The notes under the pieces are model-generated. The model worked only from the letters and a program-made list of their open reading frames with translations. It searched no databases and was not told the origin of the DNA. Shown piece by piece: positions 6,796-39,535 of a stretch of 64,000 nt of DNA; position 1 is the first letter of the stretch; each line of letters starts with the position of its first letter. Both the position numbers and the translations under genes were made by a program. The stretch covers positions 5,055 through 69,054 of the forward strand of contig CAMNOV010000002.1 in the NCBI GenBank assembly GCA_946547105.1, written 5' to 3'. The stretch comes from an uncultured Clostridia bacterium. Lineage in GTDB: Bacteria > Bacillota > Clostridia > Oscillospirales > Oscillospiraceae.

Positions 6796-6824
6796 TTAAT
6801 GCAAGACTATAAGAGGAATGAGCT

Positions 6825-7700: not shown

Positions 7701-7703
7701 GAG

Positions 7704-9185: not shown

Positions 9186-9208
9186 TACGATCCGGGAAGG
9201 ATACAGGT

Positions 9209-12223: not shown

Positions 12224-13075
12224 ATGGCGCTGAAAATGATGTATATTACGAAGGATCCGGAGATTGCCCGCATCGCGGAAGAAGCGGGTGTGGATCGCAT
12301 CTGGGTGGATCTGGAGTATATTGGCAAGGCCTTGCGGCAGGGCGGTCTGGATACCGTCCAGTCTCATCATACCATGGAAGACATTAAAGTGATCCACGCG
12401 GCCATCAACCGCGCGGAGCTGCAGGTGCGGGTCAATCCGATCCATCAAGCCACCGCGGAATACAGTGATTCCCGGACGGAGATCGATGACGCCATCGCGG
12501 CCGGCGCCGACCGGCTGATGCTGCCGTATTTCAAAACCGTTGCAGAGGTCGAGACCTTTCTGGATCTGGTGGATGGGCGCGTGAGAAACAATCTTCTGCT
12601 CGAAACGCCGGAGGCGGTCGAGCGGATCGATGAGATCCTGGCCCTGCCCGGGATCGACGAGATCCATATCGGGCTCAACGATCTCAGCCTCGGCTACAAA
12701 AAGCCCTTCCTGTTTGACCTCCTGGCCGACGGAACGGTGGAGCGGCTCTGCCTCAAGTGCCGCGAAGCCGGCATCCCTTACGGCTTCGGCGGCGTGGCCT
12801 CTTTGGGACGAGGCCTGCTGCCCGCCGAGTATGTCATCCGCGAGCATTACCGCCTCGGCTCGACCCGCGTGATCCTCTCCCGCAGCTTCTGCAACCGGGA
12901 ACTGAACGCCGATCTGGACGAGGGCCGCATTGCCTTTACCTCTAGAATGCGTCAGATCCGCGCCTTTGAGCGCGAGTGCGAGCAGCACGCCGCCTTTTTC
13001 TGGAACAGCCGCAAGGAAGCCGAACGGGAGATCCGCCTGATCTCAGAGAAGCTGAGCAGGGGGGGACGGACTTGA
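12224..13075 (+). CDS. HpcH/HpaI aldolase / citrate-lyase-beta family protein
   Basis: 'AEEAGVDRIWVDLEYIGK', 'ADRLMLPYFKTVAEVE' and 'ETPEAVERIDEILALPGIDEIHIGLNDLS' match the TIM-barrel PEP/pyruvate-domain pattern of HpcH-like enzymes. Confidence 0.6.
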   Translation: MALKMMYITKDPEIARIAEEAGVDRIWVDLEYIGKALRQGGLDTVQSHHTMEDIKVIHAAINRAELQVRVNPIHQATAEYSDSRTEIDDAIAAGADRLMLPYFKTVAEVETFLDLVDGRVRNNLLLETPEAVERIDEILALPGIDEIHIGLNDLSLGYKKPFLFDLLADGTVERLCLKCREAGIPYGFGGVASLGRGLLPAEYVIREHYRLGSTRVILSRSFCNRELNADLDEGRIAFTSRMRQIRAFERECEQHAAFFWNSRKEAEREIRLISEKLSRGGRT

Positions 13076-13989
13076 GGCTGCTGATCTGCGGCGCCTGGCA
13101 GGGCGCCGGAGCGCATTTGGACGAGATCCGCGCCATGGGGCACGAGGTCGCGTTTCTGCCCCAGGAACGGGACGAGCTGCCGGTCGAAGCCGACTGGGTG
13201 GAAGGCGTGATCGGCAACGGCTTTTTTCTCTTTCACCCGATAGAAACCTTTCGCAATCTGAAATATATCCAGGTCATCAGCGCCGGACTGGACCGCGTCC
13301 CGGTGGACGAGGTGCAGCGGCGCGGTATTACGCTGAAAAACGCGCGCGGCGTTTACAGCGGCCCGATGGCGGAGCACGCCGTCTGGGCGGCGCTGACATT
13401 GTATCGCCGTCGCGCGTATTACATGAATAACCAGGCGGAGCACATCTGGAGCAAGCTCCGCGTGATCCCGGAACTGGCGGGGAAGACGGTCTGCGTTCTC
13501 GGCTGCGGCAGCGTGGGCACGGCCTGCGCCGAGCGCTTCGGCGGCATGGGCTGCCGCGTGATCGGCGTCAACCGCACGCCGCGCAGAGATCCCGCCTTTG
13601 AGAAGATCTTTTCCTTTGCCGAAACGTCAGACGCGTTGGGCATGGCTGATATTGTGGTCGTGACGCTGCCGCTGAATGACGAGACGCGCCATTTGATAAA
13701 TGAGGAACGTCTGTCGCAGATGAAAGACAGCGCCCTTCTGATCAATATCGCCCGCGGTCCGCTGGTGGATACGGATGCGCTGCTTGCGGCGCTGGACGTA
13801 CAGCTCGGCGGCGCGGCGCTGGACGTTTTTGAAACCGAACCCCTCCCGGCGGACAGTCCGCTCTGGGAGCATCCCAAACTCCTCCTCACCCCGCACAACA
13901 GCTTCATGGGCGAGCACAACGCCGAACGCCTGGATGCGGTGATCATGAGAAATCTATCGGATCAAGAGAAAAATGCTTTTTCAACCTGA
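13072..13989 (+). CDS. D-isomer-specific 2-hydroxyacid dehydrogenase family protein
   Basis: Start moved to in-frame TTG 13072 (RBS GGGGGAcggac), a 4-nt overlap with the upstream stop; the track ATG 12976 would overlap the upstream gene by 100 nt. 'GKTVCVLGCGSVGTA' is a Rossmann motif; 'LINIARG..VD' and 'LDVFETEPLP......LLLTPHNS' follow the family pattern. Confidence 0.8.
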   Translation: MRLLICGAWQGAGAHLDEIRAMGHEVAFLPQERDELPVEADWVEGVIGNGFFLFHPIETFRNLKYIQVISAGLDRVPVDEVQRRGITLKNARGVYSGPMAEHAVWAALTLYRRRAYYMNNQAEHIWSKLRVIPELAGKTVCVLGCGSVGTACAERFGGMGCRVIGVNRTPRRDPAFEKIFSFAETSDALGMADIVVVTLPLNDETRHLINEERLSQMKDSALLINIARGPLVDTDALLAALDVQLGGAALDVFETEPLPADSPLWEHPKLLLTPHNSFMGEHNAERLDAVIMRNLSDQEKNAFST

Positions 13990-14000: not shown

Positions 14001-15572
14001 ATGCAGTCAATAAAAGATCTTCTGGATCAGTATCCTCAATACCGGGAAAAACTGTATATCCGCGGCTTTCTCCTTTCAAAAGGTGAGGAAGACGAATCAG
14101 TATATCCCTATTACGGTGCATGGAAGCCCTTTTCAATCGGCAGCTATCGTCTGCTCGTACATCCGCTTCAGCATATCTGCATCCGTAATACTGGCTCCTA
14201 TAGTGTAGCCCTTGTCGGACATGCCATGGATCCTTTTGCCCTGGAGGCGAATGAAGCAGTGATTCTGGACGGCTGTCTGGAAGAACTTGAACGAGATGAG
14301 GCATCTTTCTGGAATCGTTTCAATCAGCTTACAGGAGTTTTTACTTGTTTCGTATTTCATGAAGATCGGGTTTGGATCATTGGCGATGCCAGCGGTATGC
14401 AGACTACATTTTATGCCGTACAAAACGGCAAACTATTTGTATCCTCCCATACCATGATGCTGGGCGAGCAGCTTGGACTGAAAAAAGATCCCTATATTGA
14501 TCGACTGATCCGATATCGTTTTTTCCCGCTTCTTGGAAATGCGCTACCAGGCGACCGGACGCAATTTGTCGGTCTTACTCGCGTCACGCCGAATATATGT
14601 ACTATTTTTGAAAATGGTGAAATCAGACGTCGGCGTTTTTTTACCCCTTATAGGATGCCAGAAAAATCGAAGGAAGAGCTGGCGAAAGAAGCTGGCGAGC
14701 TGATAAACCGTACGCTGGTACTGGTCGCTCAAAAATGGAAGAAGCCGGCGATCTCCTTGACCGGTGGATGTGACAGCAAAACGACATTAGCTTGCGCCAG
14801 AGGGGTGTACGATCGTTTTCAGTATTACAGCTACTCGTCCTCTCCGGCCGAGCAAGTTGACTGCGAAGCGGCAGGGATCATTTGCCAGGCACTTGGATTG
14901 GAGCATACTGTCTATTCAATTCCGAACACGTTGCCGGATCATGAAGTGCTTGAAGTCGTAGCCAGGATCCTCCGTTGGAACTGCGGAGATATCCTGGACA
15001 GCAACCCGAATGACGTCAGAAAGCGGATTGTGCTGGATGAGATCGACGATTTTGACGTTGAGGTCAAATCGTGGGCTTCAGAGATCGGCCGCGCTTATTA
15101 TTCCAAACGTTTTCACGGCCGCACAAAGTTTCCGGTGAAGCCCAGCGGCCGTGCCTGCACGACTTTGTATAAGTTTTTCCTCCATGACCGAAAGCTGGTC
15201 CGGGAAACTGACAAAGTGTTTGAAGGTTTTATCAGAGAGTATTATCAGGCTGCTGAGCAGGATCCGATCCCGTGGTTTGAACAGTTCTTTTGGGAATTCC
15301 GTGTACCCGCGTGGAATGGTCTTGTCATTACTGGTGAGCACCGATACTCCTCGGATATCACGATCCCTTACAACAATCGGTTACTGCTGACGATCCTGTT
15401 GAGCGTGCCGATCGAAGAGCGCATTACTGACGCACTGTATACGGAAATCAGAAAGCAGTTTCAGCCGAAGATTGATGCGGCCGGTGTTTCTGTGACAAAT
15501 CTTCACCATACTGAGCGAAGAGAAAAACTGGAGAATTTGTATTGGCTGCTCCATACTGCAATTCCATACTAG
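14001..15572 (+). CDS. asparagine-synthetase-like PP-loop (adenylating) protein lacking the N-terminal Cys nucleophile
   Basis: RBS AAGGGGGAttccATG. 'LTGVFTCFVFHEDRVWIIGDASGMQTTFY' resembles the AsnB GATase-domain core, but the protein starts MQSIK with no Cys2. 'ISLTGGCDSKT' is an SGGxDS-type PP-loop. Confidence 0.5.
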   Translation: MQSIKDLLDQYPQYREKLYIRGFLLSKGEEDESVYPYYGAWKPFSIGSYRLLVHPLQHICIRNTGSYSVALVGHAMDPFALEANEAVILDGCLEELERDEASFWNRFNQLTGVFTCFVFHEDRVWIIGDASGMQTTFYAVQNGKLFVSSHTMMLGEQLGLKKDPYIDRLIRYRFFPLLGNALPGDRTQFVGLTRVTPNICTIFENGEIRRRRFFTPYRMPEKSKEELAKEAGELINRTLVLVAQKWKKPAISLTGGCDSKTTLACARGVYDRFQYYSYSSSPAEQVDCEAAGIICQALGLEHTVYSIPNTLPDHEVLEVVARILRWNCGDILDSNPNDVRKRIVLDEIDDFDVEVKSWASEIGRAYYSKRFHGRTKFPVKPSGRACTTLYKFFLHDRKLVRETDKVFEGFIREYYQAAEQDPIPWFEQFFWEFRVPAWNGLVITGEHRYSSDITIPYNNRLLLTILLSVPIEERITDALYTEIRKQFQPKIDAAGVSVTNLHHTERREKLENLYWLLHTAIPY

Positions 15573-15594
15573 AAAACTGAGAGGGGACTGTTCA

Positions 15595-16578
15595 TTGCAG
15601 CTTTCATTTCTAATAAAAGAAAGAATTCATCTTTTTAATCAAAATATAAAAAAATATAATACTATCAATTACTGCGGATTTGCACCCTTATTATATGTGC
15701 GCTTTTGGGTTGATGAGATTTTTTCTTTCTTTTTCTTTGGCGCCAGCCCCGATGATTATTTTAGATATGAATTCTATAGAAAGTCTTTGTCTGAGCGGAA
15801 TAACTTCATAACGTTTTTAAAAAGCAAAAAGCTTATCAAAAAGTTTAATAGCGAGGACATCGTTCGAAAAATAAACAGTAAAGATGAATTAAATCAGTTG
15901 TTTTCTTGCTATTTACACCGAGAATGGTTGGATTTGGATTCAGCAAATAACGATGCTTTTTCTGATTTTTTATGCAGACATAAGAAGATTATTCTAAAAC
16001 CTAAAACTGGTTCCGGTGGAAAGGGTATTTTTGTCTTATCGCAAGAGGACGTTTCTATCCAAAGAAATGGACTTGAAGAGTATAGAGGATACATAGCGGA
16101 AGAACTTTTAAACCAGCATCAGGCTCTATCGAAAATTAATCCAAGTTCAGTTAATAGCATTAGAGTTATGACTTTTCGTGGAACTATTCTATCTGCTGTA
16201 TTAAAGGTTGGACGTTTAGGGTCAGTTGTAGATAATATGAGCTCTTCAGGGCTGTATGGTAATATAGACTTAGATTATGGAGTAACCAATTCGGTTTTCC
16301 ACGATATTAAATTAAATAACTATTATTACCATCCAGACACAAACGAGAAATTAATAGGACTAACTATTCCTCTGTGGAATGAAGTCAAACAAATTGTTGC
16401 TGAGGCTTCAAAATGTGTCCCAGACTTACAGTATTGCGGTTGGGATATAGCTGTTTTGCCAGATAAGGTAGCTATTATAGAAGTTAATGCTTCTCCAGGG
16501 CATGATTTGTCGATCCAGTCAACACTTCAACAAGGTATTTATAATAAAATACAACAAGAATTAAAGAAAAAGAGTTAA
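15595..16578 (+). CDS. TupA-like 'sugar-transfer associated' ATP-grasp protein
   Basis: TTG start with RBS GAGAGGGGA. 'ILKPKTGSGGKGIFVL', 'IAEELL.QH' and 'IRVMTF' fit the ATP-grasp fold, and the N-terminal region 'DDYFRYEFYRKS' is typical of the TupA-like family. Very AT-rich gene. Confidence 0.65.
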   Translation: MQLSFLIKERIHLFNQNIKKYNTINYCGFAPLLYVRFWVDEIFSFFFFGASPDDYFRYEFYRKSLSERNNFITFLKSKKLIKKFNSEDIVRKINSKDELNQLFSCYLHREWLDLDSANNDAFSDFLCRHKKIILKPKTGSGGKGIFVLSQEDVSIQRNGLEEYRGYIAEELLNQHQALSKINPSSVNSIRVMTFRGTILSAVLKVGRLGSVVDNMSSSGLYGNIDLDYGVTNSVFHDIKLNNYYYHPDTNEKLIGLTIPLWNEVKQIVAEASKCVPDLQYCGWDIAVLPDKVAIIEVNASPGHDLSIQSTLQQGIYNKIQQELKKKS

Positions 16579-19841: not shown

Positions 19842-19917
19842 TAAATGCGTTCGTCGGTGATTGCACAGCCGGTTAGAGGGAGCTGTACCGCATAAAAACC
19901 TTCAGGAGGTCTGTGAA

Positions 19918-20766
19918 ATGGGTAATACACTGCGTGAACTGCAGCTTTGTGAACTTCAGATATTGAAAGATGTCAGGATAATCTTTGAGCGACACGGTCT
20001 GAAGTACTATCTCAGTGGAGGAACGCTTCTCGGTGCCGTGAGACACAAAGGTTTTATCCCCTGGGATGATGACATCGATATTATGATGCCGTATGAAGAC
20101 TACCGACGGTTTCTGGAAGTAGCGCAGGAAGAACTGGGAGACAAATATTTTGTTCAGAACAGTGAAACCGATCCAAGCTATGCTTTCGCATACACGCACA
20201 TCAGAAAAAATAATACAACAGTATTAAGTGAGTGGGATAAATTATACTTCTCTCACCACGGAGCATGGATTGATATAACACCGTTAGTACATGTAAAAGG
20301 TAAAAGAGATCGCCGTTTCAAAAATTTTCTTCTTCGAATTTGCTATTTCCTCATCATGGAAGAGAATGCTTTCAAAGTTACTGAGGAATGGCTGGTGAAA
20401 CAGAGCAGCGCAAGAATGGTACGCTTGGTCAAGCTGGTGCGGAAACTGCCGGAATCGCTGCGGAGATGGATCCGAAAAAGACTGCTGCACGTGGTCATAT
20501 ATGAAAAACGGGGCAAGCTCATCAGCTTTATCTGGTCAAGGCTGTCCGTGCCCATTCCGGCCGAGGCCTATGAAGGAGAGCCAGTTTTGCTTCCGTTTGA
20601 AGACGACGTTTTTCCAGCTCCAAAGGGTTATGAGCAGTTCCTAACCATGTCTTATGGAGACTATATGACGCCTCCACCGCCAGAAAGACAGAATGGCGGG
20701 CATGGAGCAAAACTGACCATCGATCTTGAGCACGATTGGACAGAGTATTGTAATGATTTGAATTGA
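19918..20766 (+). CDS. licD: LicD-family phosphotransferase (copy 1)
   Basis: Start at ATG 19918 (RBS AGGAGGtctgtgaa). 'LSGGTLLGAVRHKGFIPWDDDIDIMMP' and C-terminal 'YGDYMTPPPPE' are LicD hallmarks. Confidence 0.85.
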   Translation: MGNTLRELQLCELQILKDVRIIFERHGLKYYLSGGTLLGAVRHKGFIPWDDDIDIMMPYEDYRRFLEVAQEELGDKYFVQNSETDPSYAFAYTHIRKNNTTVLSEWDKLYFSHHGAWIDITPLVHVKGKRDRRFKNFLLRICYFLIMEENAFKVTEEWLVKQSSARMVRLVKLVRKLPESLRRWIRKRLLHVVIYEKRGKLISFIWSRLSVPIPAEAYEGEPVLLPFEDDVFPAPKGYEQFLTMSYGDYMTPPPPERQNGGHGAKLTIDLEHDWTEYCNDLN

Positions 20767-20917
20767 CATTTTTGTTTTTTCATATCTATAACCCGCCGCC
20801 GGATAAACGGAAGCCGCGCTTCCCGCTTCTCGTCAATTTCGAGCGGGAGTATGATTCGTCTGAAGAAGGCGGATTTAAATGGGAAAAAGTTTTTTGAAAT
20901 ATTGATTGGTAGTTATT

Positions 20918-21757
20918 ATGAGTAAAGTAATTAGCATTCCGAAGGAAGATATGCATAAAATGCATTTAATGCAATTGGAAATGCTTTCGGAATTGGACCG
21001 CGTCTGCAGACAAAATAATATAAATTATACAATATGTAACGGGACCTTGCTTGGTGCAGTCAGACACGGAGGATATATTCCGTGGGATGATGACGCCGAC
21101 ACAATGATGTTGAGAGAAGACTATGAGAGATTCAAGGAATGCTCTAATCAGTTGGACCCTAGTATCTGCTTCTTTCAGGATAATTCTACAGATCCCGGAT
21201 ATCGATGGGGATATGGAAAATTAAGAAGAACTGGTACATCTTATGTTAGAGCTGGCCAAGAGCATCTTAAAGGGAAAACAGGTGTCTTTATTGATATTTT
21301 CCCCGCAGATGATATTCCCAATTCAAAAACCGGGGCTGAATTTCAACGTTTTTTTGCTTATGTTGCCAGAAAGATTCTATATTCGGAAGTTGCCAAGAAG
21401 AATACAACTGGAATAAAAAAATATTGGTTCCAACTTTTGTCATGTGTTTCTCCCCAAAATGTATTTAAAATGATGGAGATTTATACAAACAAAAGCAGAA
21501 ACAGTAGCAATAATAGAGTTACAGCCCTGTTTATGCCAATCAGTAAGCATGTTGATCCATATTCAGGAGAGCTTCTCTATGGAAGACCAAAAAAATGGTT
21601 ATTAGAATTAGATAATTATCAATTTGAAAATTTGAACCTCATTGGCCCTAAAGATTATGATAAATGTCTGAGATGGCAATATGGTGACGATTATATGACT
21701 CCGCCGCCAGAAGACAAACGTGGTCAGCATGCACCGGTATCAAGTTATTCGCTTTGA
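20918..21757 (+). CDS. licD: LicD-family phosphotransferase (copy 2)
   Basis: 'CNGTLLGAVRHGGYIPWDDDADTMM' and 'YGDDYMTPPPED'. Confidence 0.85.
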   Translation: MSKVISIPKEDMHKMHLMQLEMLSELDRVCRQNNINYTICNGTLLGAVRHGGYIPWDDDADTMMLREDYERFKECSNQLDPSICFFQDNSTDPGYRWGYGKLRRTGTSYVRAGQEHLKGKTGVFIDIFPADDIPNSKTGAEFQRFFAYVARKILYSEVAKKNTTGIKKYWFQLLSCVSPQNVFKMMEIYTNKSRNSSNNRVTALFMPISKHVDPYSGELLYGRPKKWLLELDNYQFENLNLIGPKDYDKCLRWQYGDDYMTPPPEDKRGQHAPVSSYSL

Positions 21758-21781: not shown

Positions 21782-23050
21782 ATGAAGAACTGCGCAGGAA
21801 AAAGGCTTTTGCTTCTTGGCGGAAGCCATCCGTACTACAAAGTCGCAAAAGCAGCAAAAAAATACGGTATTCAAGTGGCCGTTGTTGATCAAAACGCCTC
21901 GGAAGAAGTACTCAGCATCTCCGATGACTATCTAAAATGTAGCCTATTGGATGTTGATACAATCAGCGATTGGTGCCTGAAGAACCCGGTTGATGGAGTA
22001 CTCAATTTCTGTATTGATTTTGCACAGAAGACTTATCTGGACATCTGTGAGCGTTTTCAATTGCCCTGTCTGTATACAAAAAAACAGGTTTCCGCACTTT
22101 CCGATAAATCAACATTTAAAAACTTGCTTCATGAGTGCGGATTAGAGATTATTAAAACATATTCCGAACAGGATATTTACAGCGATTTTGTGCATTTTCC
22201 GGTTATTGTCAAGCCGTCTGAAGCAAGCGGATCCCGCGGAAGCAAGACATGTTACAATAAAACTGAAGCCATAAAAGCGATAGACAACGCAAAAAAGGAG
22301 TCTCGCAATGGTGAGATCATTATTGAAGAGTTTATAGAAGACGGATCTGAGTTTCAAATCACTTTTTTCGTTCAAGATGGACATGTATGCGTTATTAGAA
22401 CTGCAGACAGTTATGAGGGGGAAAAGCAGTATGGATTAGAGCGCGTTGTATCATGCGCTGTATCGCCTTCTGTTTTTACGGAAGAATACTTCTTGCAAAC
22501 GCATAAGATGGTTCTTGAATTTGTTAGAAGGCTTGGGTTACGTTACGGTCCTTTTTTCATGCAGGGGTTTTATCATCACGGTTCGTTCAAGTTTTTTGAT
22601 CCAGGTTGCCGATTCCCTGGAGTGAATTTTGATTCTGTTTTCATCAGTGAATACGGAGTTGATCTTGCTGAACTGATGGTTGAATTCTCACTTTTTGGTA
22701 CAATGTCCTCTTTTTCGGTCCCGGAGAATATGTATCAATTAAACGGAAAAACAGCTGCAGTTATTTTTCCCTTTATCAAAAAAGGCCAAATTGCATCAGT
22801 TTCTGGTCTGGAGTGGTTGGAGAATAATAAAAGCATCTTTTCTGTATCAAAACGGCATTGTATAGGAGACATAATAGGACAGACTTTAGATGTAAATCAA
22901 CGCTTTGGAGAAATCGATTTAATTGGAGATAATATAGGAAAAATAAAACAACTGATAAACAATATCAATTCAAAACTCCATGTTTATGACCTTTCCGGTA
23001 GCGAAATGACTTATGCTCATTTTAATACAGAGAGGATTCAAAATAATTAA
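21782..23050 (+). CDS. ATP-grasp domain carboxylate-amine ligase-like protein
   Basis: Start at ATG 21782 (RBS AAGGAGctcaac). 'GKRLLLLGGS....KVAKAAKKYGIQVAVVD' is a pre-ATP-grasp Rossmann-like domain; 'FPVIVKPSEASGSRG' and 'IIEEFIEDGSEF' are ATP-grasp motifs. Confidence 0.65.
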   Translation: MKNCAGKRLLLLGGSHPYYKVAKAAKKYGIQVAVVDQNASEEVLSISDDYLKCSLLDVDTISDWCLKNPVDGVLNFCIDFAQKTYLDICERFQLPCLYTKKQVSALSDKSTFKNLLHECGLEIIKTYSEQDIYSDFVHFPVIVKPSEASGSRGSKTCYNKTEAIKAIDNAKKESRNGEIIIEEFIEDGSEFQITFFVQDGHVCVIRTADSYEGEKQYGLERVVSCAVSPSVFTEEYFLQTHKMVLEFVRRLGLRYGPFFMQGFYHHGSFKFFDPGCRFPGVNFDSVFISEYGVDLAELMVEFSLFGTMSSFSVPENMYQLNGKTAAVIFPFIKKGQIASVSGLEWLENNKSIFSVSKRHCIGDIIGQTLDVNQRFGEIDLIGDNIGKIKQLINNINSKLHVYDLSGSEMTYAHFNTERIQNN

Positions 23051-23085
23051 CTTGTTCTAGTTGATGAGTTGTTAGGAGCGTAAAG

Positions 23086-24114
23086 ATGAATAATACTATT
23101 GTCGCAAAACTAATTTCAATGGAAGACATCTTAGCTGCTGGCTGTTTTGATGTTAGCGATACAATTCAGATAATTGAAGATGCCCTGGTCGCATATAAAA
23201 ACGGAAAAGTGTTGTTGCCAGATAAAATATCACAGGTTTTTGATACAAAGACGCAAAATAGAATCAATTGTATGCCAGCGACTCTTCTGGATGAAAGAGT
23301 ATGCGGAGTAAAGTGGGTTTCTGTTTTTCCCGGTAATCCTGTCCAGTATAGTTGTCCAAATGTTTCAGGAACGATTATCCTTTCTGAGTTGGAAAAAGGA
23401 TATCCGTTTGCTATTATGGACGGAACCTTTATTACTGCTTTTCGCACTGCTTGTATGGGCGCTATTGGCACTAAATATTTGGCCAAGAATCACTGTGAAG
23501 TTCTCGGAATAATAGGAAGCGGTGAACAAGCCAAGATGCATTTGATTACTATAAAGACTGTGCATCCAGAAATAAAACTGTGTCGGGTTGCCTCTCGAAG
23601 CATAGAAAGCGAAAAGCGATTTGTTCAGCAGATGCAGCAACGCTTTCCGGATATGCTTTTTGAAACTTGCTGCTCCGACTATGAAATGGCCTCGTCCGGG
23701 GCGGATATAATTGTTACAGCGGTCAGCTGCCAAGCACCGTTATTGAAGGCAAGAACAATAAAAAAAGGTGCGCATTATTGTCATGTGGCTGGTTGGGAGG
23801 ATGAATTAGAGGTGCCTCTTATGGCAGACAAAATCGTTTGTGATCAGTGGGAAGCTGTAAAGCATCGTACTCAAACGATCAGCCAATTATATAAACTTGG
23901 ACGGCTAAAGGACGCAGATATTTATTCCGATATTGTTGACATCATAGATGGAACAGTGCCGGGCCGTGAGACAGACGATGAATTTACATATTTTAATTCG
24001 GTTGGTCTTGCATACATAGATGTAGCGGTTGCTTATCATTTCTATAAAAAGGTTCTTTCTAGAGGACTTGGCATAGACTGGAAAATGAAGAGCAGCAATT
24101 TCTTAGAACAATAA
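23086..24114 (+). CDS. ornithine cyclodeaminase / mu-crystallin family dehydrogenase (SbnB/opine-dehydrogenase-like)
   Basis: '...AFRTACMGAIGTKYLAK......GIIGSGEQAKMHL' is the typical OCD-family Rossmann segment, and the overall length of 342 aa fits the family. Confidence 0.65.
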   Translation: MNNTIVAKLISMEDILAAGCFDVSDTIQIIEDALVAYKNGKVLLPDKISQVFDTKTQNRINCMPATLLDERVCGVKWVSVFPGNPVQYSCPNVSGTIILSELEKGYPFAIMDGTFITAFRTACMGAIGTKYLAKNHCEVLGIIGSGEQAKMHLITIKTVHPEIKLCRVASRSIESEKRFVQQMQQRFPDMLFETCCSDYEMASSGADIIVTAVSCQAPLLKARTIKKGAHYCHVAGWEDELEVPLMADKIVCDQWEAVKHRTQTISQLYKLGRLKDADIYSDIVDIIDGTVPGRETDDEFTYFNSVGLAYIDVAVAYHFYKKVLSRGLGIDWKMKSSNFLEQ

Positions 24115-24171: not shown

Positions 24172-25245
24172 ATGTTGAATTTTACTGTCGGCCCGGTGAT
24201 GTCGGACGAAAGAGTCCTGGAGATCGCGAGCCATTCGAGTCCATATTTTCGCACGCCGGAGTTTTCCACGCTGATGAAGGAGAACGAAGCGCTGATGCTC
24301 CGCTTCCTGTCGGCGCCGGCGGGCAGCCGCTGCGTGTTTCTGACCAGCTCCGGTACCGGAGCGATGGAATCCCTGGTTATGAACATCCTGAACGACCGGG
24401 ACAAGGTCCTCGTCGTCAACGGCGGCAGCTTCGGCCAGCGCTTTGCGGAGCTCTGCCGGCTGCACAAGAGAAATATGACGGAGATCAAACTCGACTACGG
24501 CCATGCGCTTCGCCGTGAACAGCTGGAGCCCTTTGCCGGCTGCGGATATACCGCGCTGCTGATCAATATGCACGAGACCTCGTCGGGTGTTTTGTATGAT
24601 ATGCCGATGATCTCCTCTTTCTGCAAGGAGCAGGGGATCCTCCTGCTCGTGGATGCGATCAGCGCCTTCCTGGCGGACGAGCTTGACATGACGGCTCTCG
24701 GCGCTGCGGCGGTGATCACCGGCTCGCAGAAGGCGCTGGCGGTGCAGCCGGGCATTTCCGTCGTCGCGCTTGCCCCGGCCGCGCTGGAACGAGTGGCTGC
24801 GAATGAAGAAGTCTGCATGTATCTGAGCCTGAAGGAAGCGTTGAAAAACGCCGAGCGCGGGCAGACGCCCTTTACTCCCGCGGTGACGACACTGCTGCAG
24901 ATCCACGCCCGGCTGAAACAGATCGAGGCGGACGGCGGACCAGCGGCGGAGCGGCAGAAGATCGCCGGGGTCGCCCGACAGCTGCGGGCGGGGATCGCCG
25001 ATCTGCCGCTGACCAATATCTCGGAGAGCCCCTCCAACGCGGTGACGGCCCTCCATCCCGAAAACGTTCCGGCGACTGAGATCATCCGCGTCCTGAAGGA
25101 CGAGTATCGGATCTGGGCCTGCCCGAACGGCGGCGCGATGGCTGACAAGGTCTTCCGGATCGGGCACATCGGCCACATCACGGAACAGGACAATCAGACG
25201 CTGATCGACGCCCTGCACGACATGAAGAACAGAGGATTGCTGTAA
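24172..25245 (+). CDS. class-V (PLP) aminotransferase
   Basis: 'LNFTVGPVMSDERVL', 'LTSSGTGAMESLVMN' and 'ITGSQKALAVQPGIS' (PLP-Lys region) match the Ser/Ala-glyoxylate, PhnW and SerC type fold-I class V pattern. Confidence 0.75.
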   Translation: MLNFTVGPVMSDERVLEIASHSSPYFRTPEFSTLMKENEALMLRFLSAPAGSRCVFLTSSGTGAMESLVMNILNDRDKVLVVNGGSFGQRFAELCRLHKRNMTEIKLDYGHALRREQLEPFAGCGYTALLINMHETSSGVLYDMPMISSFCKEQGILLLVDAISAFLADELDMTALGAAAVITGSQKALAVQPGISVVALAPAALERVAANEEVCMYLSLKEALKNAERGQTPFTPAVTTLLQIHARLKQIEADGGPAAERQKIAGVARQLRAGIADLPLTNISESPSNAVTALHPENVPATEIIRVLKDEYRIWACPNGGAMADKVFRIGHIGHITEQDNQTLIDALHDMKNRGLL

Positions 25246-25266
25246 CGCGGAAAGAGAGGCTGTTCC

Positions 25267-26637
25267 ATGGTAAAAGTCATTACATACGGAACCTATGATC
25301 TCCTGCATTATGGACATATCCGTTTGCTGCAGCGGGCCAAGGCGCTGGGCGATTATCTGATCGTCGGCGTGACGGCGGACGATTTTGACCGGAAACGGGG
25401 CAAAATCAACGTTCAGCAGTCGCTGATGGAACGGATCGAGGCGGTCAAGGCCACCGGTCTTGCCGACGAGATCATCGTGGAAGAATACGAAGGGCAGAAG
25501 ATCGACGATATCCGGAAATATCACATCGATATTTTCACGGTCGGATCCGACTGGGTCGGGGTTTTCGACTATCTGCGCGAATACTGCCAGGTCGTCTATC
25601 TGCCTCGTACGAAGGGCGTTTCCAGCTCGGAACTGAGGACGGAGAAACAGAAGCTCCGCTTCGGCCTGGTAGGGGAAGCGGCCTATCTGAATAAATTTGC
25701 CCGGGAATGCAGCTTCGTCAACGGGACGCAGATCGTCGGCGTCTGCTCCGAAACGAAGGAGGAGGCGGGGAAGCTCGGCGAGTATCCGGTCCTTACCGAT
25801 GATCTGAACGAGCTGCTGGACCAGTCCGATGCGGTCTATATCACGTCACATCCCAGCCTGCACTTTGAGCAGATCCGTCTTGCCCTGGAAAAGGGCAAGC
25901 ACGTTTTGTGCGAAGCCCCGCTTGCTTTGAACGAGGCGCAGCTCCGGGAGCTTTCCGAACTGGCCGGCAAAAACGGCTGTATTCTGACGGAAGGCTTGAA
26001 AACCGCATATTCAACGGCATACACCCGGCTGATCCTGCTTGTGAAGGGCGGGGCCATCGGAAAACCTGTTTCCGTGGATGCGACATGTACCAGCCTGCGC
26101 GATCTATCCGCCATGACGGAGGAGGATCTGAACCGCTATTGGAATACCATCTGCGCCTGGGGCCCGACGGCAATGCTTCCCGTGTTTCATATTCTCGGCA
26201 CCGATTGGCGGGAGAGCAGGATCACGACCAAGCTGCTGGATGGAAGCAACGATTTTGACGTTTTTTCCAAAATCGATTTTACCTATTCGGATGCAGTCGC
26301 TACGGTTAAGGTCGGCAAGGGGATCAAGTCCGAAGGCGAGCTGATCGTCTCCGGCACGAAGGGATATATTTATGTTCCCGCACCCTGGTGGAAGACGGAC
26401 TATTTCGAGGTCCGCTACGAAAACCAGACTGAGAACAAACGGTATTTTTATCAGCTGGACGGCGAGGGCATCCGTTATGAGATCTCGGCCTTCCTGCGGA
26501 TGATCCGCTATGGGAACGGGGATTATTATATTTCCCGGGAAATCAGCAGAGGCTTTGCCCGGCTGATGCAGCAGTTTTATCACGGAGACTATACCTGTCT
26601 TGGCAGCAGCCTCATGAAAGCTGAAGACGAGCCTTGA
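25267..26637 (+). CDS. fusion: TagD-like glycerol-3-phosphate cytidylyltransferase (N) + Gfo/Idh/MocA-family oxidoreductase (C)
   Basis: N-terminal ~130 aa 'VITYGTYDLLHYGHIRLLQRAKALGDYLIVGV..DDF....K' and 'VGSDW.G.FDYL...C.VVYLPRT.GVSSS.LR' are close to B. subtilis TagD. Residues ~135-456, 'LRFGLVG.......F......V.G.QIVGV' and 'EKGKHVLCEAPLA', form a Gfo/Idh/MocA Rossmann domain. Confidence 0.8.
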   Translation: MVKVITYGTYDLLHYGHIRLLQRAKALGDYLIVGVTADDFDRKRGKINVQQSLMERIEAVKATGLADEIIVEEYEGQKIDDIRKYHIDIFTVGSDWVGVFDYLREYCQVVYLPRTKGVSSSELRTEKQKLRFGLVGEAAYLNKFARECSFVNGTQIVGVCSETKEEAGKLGEYPVLTDDLNELLDQSDAVYITSHPSLHFEQIRLALEKGKHVLCEAPLALNEAQLRELSELAGKNGCILTEGLKTAYSTAYTRLILLVKGGAIGKPVSVDATCTSLRDLSAMTEEDLNRYWNTICAWGPTAMLPVFHILGTDWRESRITTKLLDGSNDFDVFSKIDFTYSDAVATVKVGKGIKSEGELIVSGTKGYIYVPAPWWKTDYFEVRYENQTENKRYFYQLDGEGIRYEISAFLRMIRYGNGDYYISREISRGFARLMQQFYHGDYTCLGSSLMKAEDEP

Positions 26638-28868: not shown

Positions 28869-28919
28869 TTGCTAAGGAAAACAGCATTTCTAAACTTCAT
28901 TACAGATCGGAGAACATCC

Positions 28920-30017
28920 ATGACAGTATATACCTGGATGGTCGTCCTGCTGTTGTTGGCAGCCCTACTGCTCAATGGCAATAAAAAAGGAAATATCAAA
29001 TTTATATTGATCGCATTCCTGCTGGTTTTTGCTGTGCTTGGCCTGCGGAACGTCAATACCGCCGGTTTGGATTCATCAGGCGCTTCCGGCTCTTATCCTG
29101 TCATTTTCCGGCGATATGGGCAGACGGCATGGGGGGCTCTATACAGCGAAGGCGGTGAAAACTTCAATATCGGTTTTAAGTATTTATCAAAAGGGCTGTA
29201 TGAGCTAACAGATGGCGATTACCAGCTGTATGTTACGATACTGATGTTTTTCGTCATTTTTTCCTACATGCGTTTTATCAAAAAGTATTCGCCCTCTCCG
29301 CTTCAGAGCGTTCTTTATTTGCTTGGACTTTTGTATTTTACGCTTTTGATGGATGCGCTGAAGCAGGCGCTGGCCATGTCCGTCCTTCTGTTTGCATTTG
29401 ATGCGATCTTTGAGAAAAAGCCTGTCAAGTTTGTCCTGCTTGTGCTGCTGGCGGCCTCTTTCCATTTTCCTGCGCTGGTTTTTCTGCCTGCCTACTGGCT
29501 GGCAAAAATGCGGGTGGGAAGGAATTACCTGCTCCTGCTTGCTCTGATCCTCATTGTGACCTATTTCTTCCGTGAGCAGATCCTGAATCTGATGCTGAGC
29601 GCTTACGGCGGAGAGGATGTCAACGCTAGTCTGGAGGGCATACGTTTTCTACGAAATAAGGCTGTTATTATGATCGTCATCGTTGTAGCGGCGGTGACCC
29701 TCCGGCCTCCGACCGAGGGCGACTCGGTTTACAATGCCTGCCTGGTGTTCACCGGTGTTGCTATCGTGATCCAGACTTTCTGCGGCTACAACAACATTTT
29801 TGAACGCCTGGCCGACTATTATTTCCATACTGCGATCATTTTTATCCCGCTGGTATTTGAAAAATGCGCTCTGAAACGACATGCTCTGGATCTTGGAACA
29901 GAACTGATGATTAAAGAGCTTGGAACGCCAATTTTCTGCGCGTTCGCGATATGGCGCTTCCTATCGACCGTCAACAATTCGTGGTATTATTCGGGCATTC
30001 AGATGCTGTGGCAGTAA
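28920..30017 (+). CDS. EpsG-family polytopic membrane protein (Wzy-type polymerase candidate)
   Basis: Start at ATG 28920. About 10 predicted TM helices. 'MDALKQALAMSVLLFAF' resembles the EpsG-family R/KQ..A motif. Confidence 0.65.
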   Translation: MTVYTWMVVLLLLAALLLNGNKKGNIKFILIAFLLVFAVLGLRNVNTAGLDSSGASGSYPVIFRRYGQTAWGALYSEGGENFNIGFKYLSKGLYELTDGDYQLYVTILMFFVIFSYMRFIKKYSPSPLQSVLYLLGLLYFTLLMDALKQALAMSVLLFAFDAIFEKKPVKFVLLVLLAASFHFPALVFLPAYWLAKMRVGRNYLLLLALILIVTYFFREQILNLMLSAYGGEDVNASLEGIRFLRNKAVIMIVIVVAAVTLRPPTEGDSVYNACLVFTGVAIVIQTFCGYNNIFERLADYYFHTAIIFIPLVFEKCALKRHALDLGTELMIKELGTPIFCAFAIWRFLSTVNNSWYYSGIQMLWQ

Positions 30018-30028
30018 AGGAACAAAGC

Positions 30029-31069
30029 ATGTTGATCAGCGTGATCATTCCGGCCTATCAATGCGCCGATACAATTGAAAAAACAGTAGACAGTATCCTC
30101 GCATCCGGCCTTTCTGATGTTGAAATCGTTATGATTGACGACGGGTCACAGGATGGAACGGCAGAACACTGCGATTCTATTGCAGAGAAGTATCCCTGTG
30201 TTCGCTGCATTCATCAGAAGAACGCAGGCGTCTCGGCGGCCAGAAACAGGGGCTTGAAAGAGGCGAGGGGAGAATATGTCTGGTTTTTTGACGCTGATGA
30301 CAGTGTAGATGAGAACGCTTTGTCTGATGCAGAATCTATCCTAATAAAAGCTTCGCCGGACATGCTTGTGTTTGGAATGAGCTTTGACCATTACAGTAAG
30401 GGGAAGCGATATCGCCGGGATGAACTGCTCCCGCCTTTGGAAGGCCCGGCACACACAGGGGAACTAAGCACTGAATTGTTTATGTTGTATCAAAAAAATG
30501 TGCTCAGTTCTCTTTGCAACAGAATTATAAAAAGAAACATTCTTGTACAGATGCACCAGTGGCTTCGTGAAGACATGTTTCTGTATGAAGATATGGAGTT
30601 CACACTTCGCATTTGGAAACACTGCGAAAATGTGTATTTCCTCAGAGAGCCGATTTACCGTTATCGTCAGGCGGAAGACGGAGGAAATGCCGGGCGCAGA
30701 TTGATGAGGATACCTCATATCCCGGCGCTTCTCGATCAGATCGAAGCGGCTCTGGATGGCGTGGCGGACAAGAACAGGATCCTTCTGTCCCTGTGTCTGA
30801 CCCTGGCAAGAGAAAAAATCAGCGCTGCATCCGTGACTGACATCGAAACAGTCTGCACGGATTTTAAACAATGGGTCGATGCGCATGATCTGCTGCCTGA
30901 GATCCAAAACAGGGAATATGCCATGCGGATCTATGATGCGAGGATAATCAGCCTCGTTGTAAAAAGAAACATCAGCAAGATCCGGCATCGGGCGGCCAAC
31001 TGGGTGAAGCGGAATATCGGAGATTTCAGAAAATGGACTTATGGTTCCGGTAAGGAAGGAAAACAATAG
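30029..31069 (+). CDS. GT2-family glycosyltransferase
   Basis: Start at ATG 30029 (RBS AAGGAAcaaagc). 'ISVIIPAYQCADTIEKTVDSIL', 'VMIDDGSQDGT' and 'FFDADD'. Confidence 0.85.
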   Translation: MLISVIIPAYQCADTIEKTVDSILASGLSDVEIVMIDDGSQDGTAEHCDSIAEKYPCVRCIHQKNAGVSAARNRGLKEARGEYVWFFDADDSVDENALSDAESILIKASPDMLVFGMSFDHYSKGKRYRRDELLPPLEGPAHTGELSTELFMLYQKNVLSSLCNRIIKRNILVQMHQWLREDMFLYEDMEFTLRIWKHCENVYFLREPIYRYRQAEDGGNAGRRLMRIPHIPALLDQIEAALDGVADKNRILLSLCLTLAREKISAASVTDIETVCTDFKQWVDAHDLLPEIQNREYAMRIYDARIISLVVKRNISKIRHRAANWVKRNIGDFRKWTYGSGKEGKQ

Positions 31070-31932
31070 TGGAACAAGGAAAATACTATAAGCTTATAAC
31101 TTCTGATTCAAGAAACAATTATTTCAATTTCAGAGAGGTCTGGCAATACAAGGATATGATCCTGCTGCTTGTCAAGCGCAATTTCGTATCGCGGTATAAG
31201 CAGACGATCCTGGGCCCGGCCTGGGCGGTGATCCAGCCGCTGCTCACAACGATCGTGTTCACTTTTATCTTCGGCAACGTTGCCGGACTTGCCAACTGCG
31301 GCACTGTGCCGACCTTCCTGTTTTATATGTGCGGCAATATTGCCTGGCACTTTTTCTCCGGATGTCTGAGCGGCACGGCCAATACTTTTGTTTCAAATCG
31401 CGGGATCATGGGCAAGGTTTATTTCCCGAGAATCAGTATGCCCATTGCTACGGTACTCAGCAACCTGATCGGTTTTGGGATCCAGTCTGCCATGTTTCTT
31501 GCCTTCCTTGTGATTTATCATTTCGTTCCCGGCTATAGCATCGGAACAAACTGGTATGTGCTGATGGCTCCTCTCCTTATCTTGGAGGCTGCCGTTTTGG
31601 GTCTGGGCTGCGGTATCATCATCTCTGCGATGACCACAAAATATCGGGATCTTCAGTTTCTGGTTTCTTTCGGCGTGTCACTTTGGATGTATGCAACTCC
31701 CGTGGCCTATTCCATGGATCTGTTTGAGGGCTCTGCAGTTCTGTATATCATCGCCCGGGCCAACCCCATGTCTCCGATCGTTGAAATGCTGCGTTACGGA
31801 TTTCTCGGCGGGGAAGCGGGCTCTGTCGACTGGATGTCCTACGGCTGGTCCTGGATCTTCACCCTGGTCATACTGACTTGGGGCGTCTCTCTGTTCAACA
31901 AGGTGGAACGCACCTTTATGGACACCGTCTGA
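31069..31932 (+). CDS. tagG: ABC-2 type polysaccharide/teichoic-acid export permease (TagG/Wzm-like)
   Basis: GTG start overlapping the upstream TAG by 1 nt. 'LLLVKRNFVSRYKQTILGPAWAVIQPLLTT.VFTFIFG' is the canonical Wzm/TagG N-terminus. 6 TM helices. Confidence 0.85.
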   Translation: MEQGKYYKLITSDSRNNYFNFREVWQYKDMILLLVKRNFVSRYKQTILGPAWAVIQPLLTTIVFTFIFGNVAGLANCGTVPTFLFYMCGNIAWHFFSGCLSGTANTFVSNRGIMGKVYFPRISMPIATVLSNLIGFGIQSAMFLAFLVIYHFVPGYSIGTNWYVLMAPLLILEAAVLGLGCGIIISAMTTKYRDLQFLVSFGVSLWMYATPVAYSMDLFEGSAVLYIIARANPMSPIVEMLRYGFLGGEAGSVDWMSYGWSWIFTLVILTWGVSLFNKVERTFMDTV

Positions 31933-31976
31933 GCACGGATCGGAACAAATTTGATTTCATCAGTAGGGTAACAACG

Positions 31977-39490: not shown

Positions 39491-39535
39491 AGTTCATCGG
39501 GAAAGGTTCTTTGTCAGACATACTTGGGAGGATCT

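Follow-up and report, generated by a model that had tools for sequence, protein, structure and literature searches.

In the VanH/VanA couple, the ATP-grasp ligase receives an unusual substrate from the dehydrogenase encoded next to it, which reduces a 2-oxo acid. The pyrrolysine genes place the ligase gene pylC before the dehydrogenase gene pylD; PylC couples an amino-acid carboxylate to a non-alpha primary amine, and PylD is not a protein of the ornithine cyclodeaminase (OCD)/mu-crystallin family. Members of that family are found in SbnA/SbnB (staphyloferrin B) and in DdaA/DdaB, and in dapdiamide biosynthesis a non-standard amino acid is supplied first and then ligated by the ATP-grasp enzyme DdaF. 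OCD-family members catalyze the reductive (alkyl)amination of 2-oxo acids, and the imino-acid reductases TlLhpI, CpIM1, CRYM, BhcD, and Bsp5/PunC5 use NAD(P)H to reduce or reductively (alkyl)aminate these acids (PMC4141209, PMC8446579, PMC11876095). Among surface glycans, the Campylobacter jejuni HS:2 capsule is described as involving a serinol phosphate transaminase and an ATP-grasp amidoligase; the latter forms an amide in the capsule, with transaminase-made serinol phosphate as one partner. In teichoic-acid-type decoration, a TagD-like cytidylyltransferase works with LicD transferases to deliver a C3 polyol phosphate, and D-alanylation by Dlt places an amino-acid group beside a phosphodiester, as an ester made outside the cell.

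The window (the whole stretch of DNA analyzed, 64,000 nucleotides from an uncultured Clostridia bacterium of the Oscillospiraceae) contains two adjacent genes on the forward strand for which we propose the same logic as in VanH/VanA and dapdiamide. The first (21782..23050) codes for a 422-aa ATP-grasp ligase of the L-amino-acid-ligase (LAL)/PylC type, and the second (23086..24114) for a 342-aa SbnB-like protein of the OCD family (PF02423), predicted to be an NADPH-dependent imino-acid reductase. VanH, in contrast, is a 2-hydroxyacid dehydrogenase that serves a cell-wall depsipeptide, whereas the product proposed here is an amide on a glycan precursor. The ATG start of the ATP-grasp gene is preceded by AAGGAG, and an independent gene call made on the scaffold of origin reproduced its length of 422 aa. 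Both genes are AT-rich (GC of 0.386 and 0.406, versus about 0.6 in the window flanks) and lie between LicD genes and an aminotransferase (AT5), just where the sequence-only reading had placed them. At the border between the OCD gene and AT5 the GC content jumps from 0.41 to 0.615, and this sharp break indicates that the cassette of the window is a mosaic. The two are real genes and not hitch-hiking metabolic genes.

Both the sequence and the fold of the ligase are LAL/PylC-like. Its Pfam matches were CPSase_L_D2 (3.5e-09, 36.9 bits versus a cutoff of 19.8) and ATP-grasp_4 (6.4e-09, 36 bits versus 27), and its best NCBIfam match was PylC, at 45 bits and under the cutoff of 248.3. The best TM score of the AlphaFold model (pLDDT of 93) was 0.79, to the L-amino-acid ligase 3vot, while 4dim (TM of 0.71) ranked at the top by E value. 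The N-terminal domain previously described as Rossmann-like can be specified as the pre-ATP-grasp domain, with a beta-alpha-beta unit at residues 8 to 75 of the model and a PylC-like_N domain in homologues, which also carry LAL_C2. Residues K109, K144, E182, E190, D273, and R277, candidates for ATP and Mg binding, are invariant in 15 ligase homologues.

The association of both genes goes far beyond chance. Loci were found through either gene in two independent searches, and the 44 that remained after removing redundancy are all polysaccharide loci. The OCD gene is adjacent to the ligase in 36 of them, fused to it in frame in 4, separated by one gene in 1, and absent from 3; the co-occurrence that the sequence-only reading had proposed to survey was therefore found in 41 of the 44. 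An aminotransferase (DegT or class V) is present in 41 of the 44 as well, usually touching the pair. When the search started from the OCD protein, the ATP-grasp gene was immediately upstream in 22 of 23 close relatives; in an independent collection gathered from the ATP-grasp side, the OCD gene was immediately downstream in 63 of 70 informative loci (the ATP-grasp-based metagenome scan was built on a 15-sequence alignment). Before redundancy removal, nine loci coded for 775-aa in-frame fusions, confirmed by Pfam, in which the ligase is N-terminal. We did not accept P0187 as a Rosetta-stone fusion, as its ligase is joined merely to the last ~120 residues of the OCD protein and it must therefore be a deletion or an assembly chimera. 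The three loci that have the ligase but no OCD gene (L139, L170, and L173) indicate that the ligase family is able to function without it. Because the gene order is conserved, fusions arise naturally, and the loci are polysaccharide loci throughout, the earlier view of the pair as a dedicated glycan-decoration module rather than a part of primary metabolism is supported.

PF02423 is the sole Pfam family matched by the OCD protein (206.4 bits versus a cutoff of 24, 6.8e-61, residues 23 to 325), which falls below every NCBIfam equivalog cutoff. Its AlphaFold model (pLDDT of 88.6) has TM scores of 0.86 to 0.89 to 6t3e, 1omo, and 4mp6, the range of SbnB, alanine dehydrogenase (AlaDH), and Pyr2C reductase, versus ~0.80 to cyclodeaminases; Foldseek could not separate the first three as its nearest structure. 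OCD-family proteins are defined by a G-x-G-x2-[A/S] motif and an [R/K]-K-R-D substrate tetrad (PMC4141209). The dinucleotide motif is conserved here as G144-S-G146-E-Q-A149, and the tetrad K47, K76, R120, and D312, aligned with R39, K67, R110, and D303 of TlLhpI, is intact and invariant in 15 OCD homologues. The known imino-acid reductases of the family share this fold and tetrad, but they are at most 30% identical to the window protein, all those aligned retain a longer loop, and no ligase partner, fused or separate, and no glycan-locus setting is known for any of them. In the alignment, the window protein lacks the cyclisation triad of the cyclodeaminases (E56-D228-K232 in Pseudomonas putida numbering; PMC4141209), since the position of E56 is occupied by N61 and the loop bearing D228 and K232 is deleted. 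Given this loss and an identity of 18 to 20% to the cyclodeaminases 1x7d and 5gzi, the lowest similarity among solved structures, we discarded an ornithine or lysine cyclodeaminase producing proline or pipecolate. The profile scores (98.9 bits versus a cutoff of 350 for PRK07589 and 108 versus 408 for PRK08291) likewise keep the protein apart from the true ornithine cyclodeaminases, so the grouping that the sequence-only reading had named as its refutation was not observed.

By sequence, the OCD protein is specifically SbnB-like, which answers the question of its placement relative to SbnB and AlaDH that the first reading had raised. It is sister to SbnB in a neighbor-joining tree, and the SbnB proteins of Staphylococcus aureus and Ralstonia (where bona fide sbnA-sbnB adjacency is seen) have in common with it a deletion of five residues in a loop and the arginine of a "DRI" motif (R59), features that extend to the OCD-family partner in DdaA/DdaB. 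Neither was present in the aligned AlaDH, Pyr2C reductase, OCD, or BhcD sequences. The archaeal AlaDH profile TIGR02371 gave 206 bits versus 409, and the AlaDH residues R52, D219, and K223 are missing in the alignment (N61 stands at R52, and the loop with D219 and K223 is deleted). There are also differences from SbnA/SbnB: the window protein has no SbnA partner, scores 184 bits versus the TIGR03944 (SbnB) cutoff of 326.9, and is found in a glycan locus instead of a cluster for siderophore or antibiotic synthesis. At the end of beta-2, SbnB has "YD" or "FD", with the NAD+-specific Asp, while the window protein has "ASR"; the replacement of this Asp by Ser-Arg, a single sequence position, predicts the use of NADPH rather than NAD+ and hence, probably, catalysis in the reductive direction. 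Beside the same ligase, an unrelated second lineage of the OCD family (PRK06199) has been recruited, and it likewise shows the loop deletion, the Arg, and the loss of the Asp.

Classical opine dehydrogenases (of the octopine/nopaline synthase, CENDH, and CntM types) belong to a separate family, Octopine_DH, to which the OCD protein had no match. The exclusive match to PF02423 therefore excludes it from that family, while opine-forming chemistry is plausible: an N-(carboxyalkyl) amino-acid synthase would agree with the SbnB-like open loop, the predicted use of NADPH, and the strict retention of the gene. These features would agree equally with an enzyme that simply aminates reductively or reduces an imine. 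OCD relatives at 48 to 52% identity occur without any ligase in many phyla, so the substrates would be free, common metabolites. The neighborhoods of these relatives are mixed, with FAD oxidase trios in some and, in others, a TRAP transporter beside an octopine-DH-like gene, Opp beside an amidohydrolase, PPK2, or MFS, and no single function emerged from them.

The neighboring genes, all on the forward strand, indicate what the acid might be attached to. Upstream there are two LicD-family phosphotransferases. LicD1 (19861..20766; Pfam LicD, 3.6e-39) is specific to this locus, with an identity of just 25 to 30% to each of the LicD proteins in the related cassettes L086 to L090. LicD2 (20906..21757; Pfam LicD, 9.4e-44; GC of 0.373) belongs to the cassette and is 65 to 71% identical to the LicD immediately upstream of the ATP-grasp gene in L086, L087, and L089; its start is ambiguous (20906, 20918, or 20951), and an independent gene call gave 268 aa. 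Downstream, AT5 (24172..25245; Pfam Aminotran_5) is a class-V aminotransferase, PhnW/BhcA-like under both cutoffs and with 406 bits to PDB 3f0h. It is followed by CT~GFO (25267..26637; Pfam CTP_transf_like and GFO_IDH_MocA), a fusion of a TagD-like cytidylyltransferase (residues 1 to 126) and a Gfo/Idh/MocA oxidoreductase (about 130 to 430). The cytidylyltransferase domain has 123 bits to Bacillus subtilis TagD (1coz) over 126 residues and 116 bits versus the TIGR01518 (TagD) cutoff of 165, and its substrate could be glycerol-3-phosphate or the isosteric serinol phosphate. A phosphonate (AEP) decoration, suggested by LicD and the PhnW-like AT5, was rejected because the cytidylyltransferase is TagD-like and no PEP-mutase family turned up when the locus was scanned with Pfam, the sole related match being an HpcH/HpaI-like gene.

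Both AT5 (53 to 55% identity) and CT~GFO (57 to 61%) are syntenic in L086 to L090. CT~GFO has at least 8,000 homologues, and AT5 is tied to CT~GFO even in loci without the ATP-grasp/OCD pair. The ligase subtype of the window (50 to 58% identity) always occurs with AT5, CT~GFO, and LicD2, and other ligase subtypes accompany DegT and RmlA/RmlB-like genes. In L087, the OCD protein (49%), ligase (50%), AT5 (53%), and CT~GFO (61%) all resemble those of the window, while L001, with a DegT/PglF context, has an OCD protein 74% identical and a ligase just 26% identical. The ligase subtype thus tracks the amine-making genes and the OCD protein does not. Since the invariable partners are amine-making aminotransferases with which the ligase subtype co-varies, the polarity of the reaction would be from the carboxylate of the acid to the amine of a sugar or alditol.

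Altogether, the pair probably produces an acid of the amino-acid type and joins it to a cell-surface polysaccharide building block that bears an amine. From the observed gene identities, synteny, fusions, co-variation, and conserved residues we infer each chemical step of a five-gene cassette (LicD2, ATP-grasp, OCD reductase, AT5, and CT~GFO), in which the reductase-made acid would be amide-linked to a CDP-amino alcohol and transferred by LicD2; we give this reading a probability of about 60%. CT~GFO would form a CDP-activated, 2-oxidised glycerol skeleton and AT5 would install the amine, converting glycerol phosphate into a CDP-activated C3 2-amino alcohol, most simply CDP-serinol. The order might be from CDP-glycerol through its 2-keto form to the amine or, alternatively, from DHAP through serinol phosphate to CDP-serinol. 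The transamination of DHAP to serinol phosphate is known (PMC3222319), although its direct use would make the Gfo/Idh/MocA domain redundant, and the skeleton of the amino alcohol might also be other than C3. The OCD enzyme would use NADPH to reduce the imine of a common 2-oxo acid and an amine, releasing a free alpha-amino or N-substituted amino acid. The ATP-grasp ligase would phosphorylate its carboxylate and use the resulting acyl phosphate to acylate the primary amine of the CDP-activated building block, after which LicD2 would pass the N-acylated amino-alcohol phosphate on to the glycan. The proposed delivery of a C3 polyol phosphate and the amino-acid group beside a phosphodiester recall teichoic acids and Dlt, respectively, but the bond would be an amide on the 2-amino group, formed by an ATP-grasp enzyme inside the cytoplasm. 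In most other loci, the same pair would act on an NDP-4-amino-6-deoxyhexose supplied by DegT with RmlA/RmlB-like or PglF-like enzymes. We tentatively favor an opine-type N-(1-carboxyalkyl) amino acid as the acid, followed closely by a simple amino acid such as alanine; a cyclic imino acid is unlikely, and an acid of some further type only slightly less so.

Other arrangements of the same enzymes deserve consideration. The sequence-only reading had the OCD enzyme make an N-(1-carboxyalkyl) amino acid whose amine is joined by the ATP-grasp enzyme to the carboxylate of a uronic acid, as in Proteus and Providencia O-antigens. The SbnB-like features and predicted NADPH use would suit such an opine synthase, and in the C. 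jejuni capsule, as described, glucuronate is amidated by an ATP-grasp enzyme, the sugar giving the carboxylate and serinol the amine. However, the window lacks a UDP-glucose dehydrogenase, which is present in only 9 of 108 related loci, LAL/PylC-type ligases activate the carboxylate of an amino acid, and the universal partner is an aminotransferase, with the ligase subtype following the amine-making genes. We consequently abandoned the uronic-acid linkage, which is very improbable. The context argues instead for the polarity opposite to that of the Cj1438-type capsule amidoligase, with the amino alcohol or amino sugar giving the amine and a small acid the carboxylate; furthermore, the C. jejuni system is not known to include an OCD-family enzyme, cytidylyl activation, or LicD. 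The earlier interpretation therefore stands as regards a glycan module and a protein that is not a cyclodeaminase, and is not supported as regards the linkage to uronic acids and membership of the classical opine dehydrogenase family, while its opine chemistry is plausible only. That the pair are unrelated passengers of a mosaic locus, without joint function, might be argued from their deviating GC content, but it is contradicted by their pairing in two independent searches and by the natural fusions, and we consider it the least credible reading of all.

The order of events could also be that of PylC and PylD, with a common amino acid ligated first and the OCD enzyme then carboxyalkylating its alpha-amine or oxidizing or cyclizing the tethered residue. 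The ligase-then-dehydrogenase gene order, the N-terminal ligase of the fusions, and PylC as the best NCBIfam match agree with it. Nevertheless, the carboxylate-binding tetrad is complete and R59 is invariant, both of which indicate a free alpha-carboxylate, the OCD sequence does not co-vary with the acceptor type, and the ~50%-identical relatives with the same active-site residues function without any ligase, so that the dehydrogenase most probably acts before ligation and the PylC/PylD order seems improbable. Somewhat more doubtful is a route in the manner of ALD1/SARD4, in which the aminotransferase would make a cyclic imino acid from lysine or ornithine for the OCD enzyme to reduce to pipecolate or proline before ligation. 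OCD-family Pyr2C/Pip2C reductases are well documented (PMC4141209; structures 7rbp and 6t3e), the aminotransferase touches the pair in most loci, and some distant OCD relatives adjoin FAD-dependent amine oxidase trios. Against it, DegT is accompanied by RmlA/RmlB-like or PglF/PglC-like genes typical of NDP-amino-sugar synthesis, AT5 is locked to CT~GFO independently of the pair, and the hydrophobic ring pocket of 6t3e (F, L, and Y) is replaced by R59, N61, and C62. A true SbnB orthologue releasing L-2,3-diaminopropionate, to be ligated as in dapdiamide biosynthesis, would account for the sister clade, the loop deletion, and a weak DdaF match of the ligase, but the SbnB score is too low, the NAD-specific Asp is gone, and an SbnA-like PALP gene is missing in the window and present in only 1 of 108 loci; we rejected this type of Dap synthesis, which is extremely unlikely here.

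The proposed attachment of a reductase-made acid to an activated amine by the five-gene cassette is of interest because bacterial surface antigens often carry amino acids and opine-like acids in amide linkage to amino sugars, and these groups influence charge, antigenicity, and phage or immune recognition. Literature searches of incomplete coverage returned nothing relevant on the pair, CDP-serinol, or OCD genes in glycan loci, and for that reason the decoration route can be called undescribed only provisionally. A more specific version, rather unlikely, would be a new donor, CDP-serinol N-acylated with an opine-type N-(1-carboxyalkyl) amino acid that an NADPH-dependent "reverse SbnB" makes, and installed by LicD, with the reductase-ligase pair of the DegT loci representing the long-missing N-acyl route on 4-amino-6-deoxyhexoses. 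If true, what LicD installs would resemble D-alanyl-glycerol-phosphate teichoic acid, as a zwitterionic or anionic analogue stabilised by its amide, and the DegT-type loci would be the source of amino-acid and opine N-acyl groups in capsules and O-antigens. AT5 and CT~GFO point to a much larger pathway, which probably makes a CDP-activated amino alcohol whose amine seems to differ in its fate among Clostridia, staying free in some and being methylated or acylated in others. The combination of an aminotransferase, a LAL-type ATP-grasp ligase, and an SbnB-like reductase, sometimes fused, is a compact and portable signature that recurs in about 100 gut and rumen loci, and it can therefore be used to predict such decorations from sequence.

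The two genes in which the sequence-only reading saw a possible opine-type decoration system for a glycan are both present: an ATP-grasp ligase (21782-23050, 422 aa), whose ATG is preceded by AAGGAG and which an independent gene call returned with the same 422 aa, and an ornithine cyclodeaminase (OCD)/mu-crystallin protein (23086-24114, 342 aa; PF02423, 206 bits). They belong to a polysaccharide locus of lower GC that extends from ~2.8 to 41 kb in the window, where overall GC is ~60%. The locus contains a co-directional run of Bac_transf, HpcH-like, 2-Hacid_dh, an AsnB-like ORF, ATPgrasp_ST, three glycosyltransferases, two LicD genes (19861-20766 and 20906-21757, the latter hereafter LicD2), the ligase-OCD pair, a class-V aminotransferase (AT5, 24172-25245) and a TagD-like cytidylyltransferase fused to a Gfo/Idh/MocA oxidoreductase (CT~GFO, 25267-26637). 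Further glycosyltransferases, EpsG and Wzm/Wzt lie downstream of the latter. No convincing terminator was found between the pair and its neighboring genes, and the window has no DegT, RmlA or RmlB.

The pairing is conserved well beyond this genome. Searches with the OCD protein gave about 3000 relatives at E<1e-20, nearly all of them unnamed metagenome proteins, and in the three contexts sampled (55-74% identity) an ATP-grasp gene was always found immediately upstream, within polysaccharide loci. A scan with one genome per species gave 430 relatives, 80 of which were taken for context study. The closest of these (L001-L023 and L031, 51-74% identity) come mostly from Clostridia, with members in Coprococcus comes (including the cultured strain MSK.16.63, whose locus L010 is of the DegT type), in a Holdemanella and in a Bacteroides genome bin, and the ligase is directly upstream in 22 of 23, the exception being L017. 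The remaining ones (48-52% identity), found in Planctomycetes, Verrucomicrobia, Proteobacteria, archaea and others, have no ligase and varied neighbors. When metagenome contigs were scanned independently with the ligase as the starting point, 63 of 70 informative loci had an OCD-family gene directly downstream. After collapsing ligases with >90% identity, 44 nonredundant loci were left, with the two genes adjacent in 36, fused in frame in four and separated by one gene in another (41/44 in total), while three had no OCD gene. Natural in-frame fusions occur in nine loci (L106, L109, L125, L126, L128, L129, L133, L156, and L163) and code for proteins of 769-813 aa (e.g., 775 aa) in which both the ligase and the OCD domain are complete and the conserved GWEDE motif reads GLEDD. 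A further candidate, P0187 (L093, 516 aa), was rejected as a functional fusion: its full ligase is followed by just the final ~120 OCD residues, and it is a deletion or an assembly chimera.

Aminotransferases are the other constant of these loci. A DegT-family member is present in all informative loci of the first set but L019, and either DegT or AT5 is found in 41 of the 44 nonredundant loci, the usual order being DegT-ligase-OCD or ligase-OCD-DegT. RmlA-like plus RmlB-like, or PglF/PglC-like, genes are often close to the DegT-type pair; together with DegT, such sets produce NDP-4-amino-6-deoxyhexoses. The three independent loci with the ligases nearest to that of the window (50-58% identity) share a different cassette, LicD, AT5, CT~GFO, LicD, ligase and OCD, and the window carries the same genes in another order. 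Across these loci, AT5 is 53-55% and CT~GFO 57-61% identical to the window proteins, and the LicD just upstream of the ligase is 65-71% identical, versus only 25-30% for the other LicD. GC content breaks sharply within the window cassette (LicD2, 0.37; ligase, 0.39; OCD, 0.41; versus AT5, 0.615, and CT~GFO, 0.545), and its gene order also differs from that of the AT5-type loci L086-L090, so that it looks like a recombinant mosaic. The synteny in polysaccharide loci, the aminotransferase partners and the fusions bear out the proposal that the pair decorates a glycan with an amino acid.

The best family matches of the ligase (PylC, PurK/PurT, CPSase, and D-Ala-D-Ala ligase) are all far below their cut-offs. 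Its homologs combine a PylC-like_N domain with an L-amino-acid-ligase C-terminal domain, and its model (pLDDT 93) gave the best TM-score, 0.79, with the L-amino-acid ligase 3vot, the top match by E value being the structural-genomics protein 4dim. Ligases of this type convert the carboxylate of an amino acid to an acyl phosphate, which is passed to an amine. This polarity, together with the aminotransferase partners, contradicts the linkage to uronic acids that had been suggested for the product; the ligase would couple the carboxylate of the acid to an amine, and uronic-acid amidation was discarded. No UDP-glucose dehydrogenase is encoded in the window, and just 9 of 108 related loci have one.

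The OCD protein did not reach any of the NCBIfam equivalog cut-offs (archaeal AlaDH, 206 versus 409 bits; PRK08618, 202 versus 417; SbnB, 184 versus 327; ornithine cyclodeaminase, 99 versus 350). Its AlphaFold model (pLDDT 88.6) matched the Pyr2C reductase 6t3e, AlaDH 1omo and SbnB alike (TM 0.86-0.89), and the true cyclodeaminases more poorly (about 0.80, with 18-20% identity). According to the family criteria of PMC4141209, the dinucleotide motif and the [R/K]-K-R-D tetrad (K47, K76, R120, and D312) are intact, but the cyclization triad E56/D228/K232 is missing, the five-residue loop holding D228/K232 (D219/K223 in AlaDH) being deleted. Cyclodeamination is contradicted by this loss and, as had been anticipated, the protein is not an OCD of primary metabolism. 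The loop deletion is shared with two SbnB sequences and is absent from AlaDH, Pyr2C reductase, the Agrobacterium OCD and BhcD, and R59, which lies in a DRI motif two residues ahead of the E56 position, is common to this protein and SbnB only. In a simple neighbor-joining tree, the whole OCD clade is sister to SbnB, in agreement with the resemblance first noticed. The Asp typical of NAD(H)-dependent members has given way to Ser-Arg (Ala-Lys in distant relatives), a change at a single position that predicts NADP(H) use and, therefore, a reductive, biosynthetic role. In four loci (L136, L143, L146, and L168), the gene after the same ligase belongs to another OCD-family lineage, NCBIfam PRK06199 "tyramine oxidase subunit B" (461-472 bits, above the cut-off, as scored for L136 and L146), which also has the loop deletion and the arginine and has also lost the Asp. 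In L136, this gene is followed by an APC-family amino-acid permease, inside the polysaccharide locus.

The two partners do not vary together. In L001, a DegT/PglF-type locus, the OCD protein is 74% identical to that of the window but the ligase only 26%, whereas in the AT5-type L087 the values are 49 and 50%. OCD active-site residues are essentially invariant throughout, ligase-less relatives included. Considering that these residues do not change while the ligase varies with the acceptor context, we infer that the substrates of the OCD enzyme are free, common small molecules and that its product does not differ from locus to locus; the ligase would join this product to whichever amine each locus makes. 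The same pattern argues against direct binding of a nucleotide-linked amine by the OCD enzyme.

In the window, this amine would come from AT5 and CT~GFO. The cytidylyltransferase domain gives 123 bits to Bacillus subtilis TagD, the Gfo/Idh/MocA domain resembles the secondary-alcohol dehydrogenases of nucleotide sugars and inositol, and AT5, a small class-V aminotransferase, has a close homolog of known structure and unknown function (3f0h, 406 bits). An amine is normally installed on an activated sugar by oxidation of a secondary alcohol and transamination of the resulting ketone. On a glycerol-phosphate skeleton, we propose that either order of the steps would end at CDP-serinol. Transamination of DHAP to serinol phosphate is known (PMC3222319), and a literature search of partial coverage found no paper mentioning CDP-serinol. 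The aminotransferase-CT~GFO unit (24172-26637 in the window; also L177, L178, and L179) has a much wider distribution than the pair, the fusion having at least 8000 homologs. In Clostridium sp. MSJ-11, it is found with LicD and without the pair, and elsewhere it adjoins a MerR~methyltransferase gene, rml genes and a Choline_bind_4 (choline-binding-type) protein. These settings are compatible with an amine that may stay free or become methylated or acylated. The unit may represent a general way of making a CDP-activated amino alcohol.

Taken from sequence, synteny and family knowledge, the pathway would start with the reductase converting a 2-oxo acid, an amine and NADPH into an acid, which the ligase would amide-link to the amine of CDP-serinol in the window, or of an NDP-amino sugar elsewhere, for LicD2 to move the product to the glycan. 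It resembles VanH/VanA in that the neighboring ATP-grasp enzyme receives an unusual substrate from a dehydrogenase. Members of the OCD family carry out imino-acid reduction, reductive amination or alkylamination of 2-oxo acids (PMC4141209, PMC8446579, and PMC11876095), and the acid could be the product of a plain reductive amination (alanine-type) or of the reduction of a cyclic imine, both of which also fit the protein and are live alternatives. The SbnB-like open loop, the extra arginine and the predicted reductive direction favor an opine-type, N-substituted acid, as does the strict retention of the OCD gene, since a proteinogenic amino acid would make it unnecessary. We tentatively give this original idea a probability of about 0.4. 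Dap synthesis was also considered and is contradicted by the lack of an SbnA-like PALP gene in the window (one such gene is found among 108 related loci).

Ligase-less OCD relatives (~50% identity) in nine loci (L037, L052, L066, L071, L074, L079, L080, L084, and L091, the last a plasmid of Acaryochloris marina S15) adjoin a gene trio of the HcnABC/opine oxidase/D-hydroxyproline dehydrogenase type, whose products are a 2Fe-2S protein and two oxidoreductases, one FAD/NAD(P)-binding and the other FAD-dependent. On short contigs, only the 2Fe-2S gene is seen, and this gene is missing from one locus; transposases bound the four genes in Acaryochloris. This arrangement suggests an oxidase-reductase couple for an imino or secondary-amine acid.

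Two more candidate amide-forming genes are found upstream of the pair (14001-16578), a 523-aa ORF with a weak asparagine-synthase match and no Pfam family, and a "sugar-transfer associated" ATP-grasp (PF14397, GC 33%); ATPgrasp_ST genes are also found with the pair in 10 or more other loci. Before them, an HpcH/HpaI aldolase-like ORF (12224-13075) overlaps the start of a D-2-hydroxyacid dehydrogenase ORF (12976-13989), and both have host-like GC. The two may contribute a substituent of the glycerate or lactate type, or the true start of the dehydrogenase ORF may be further downstream. Wzy-type machinery (CpsB phosphatase, two tandem Wzz~tyrosine-kinase fusions, and the EpsG polymerase) is found together with an ABC-type exporter (Wzm and a Wzt carrying a Wzt_C domain), both systems being spanned by 6049-10681 and 28869-33263, so that there may be two polymers or a hybrid pathway. 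Wzt is followed by a 703-aa ORF (33397-35508) that matches no Pfam or NCBIfam family, and the locus ends with a third LicD gene (39524-40369) followed by a polysaccharide deacetylase gene (40416-41234).
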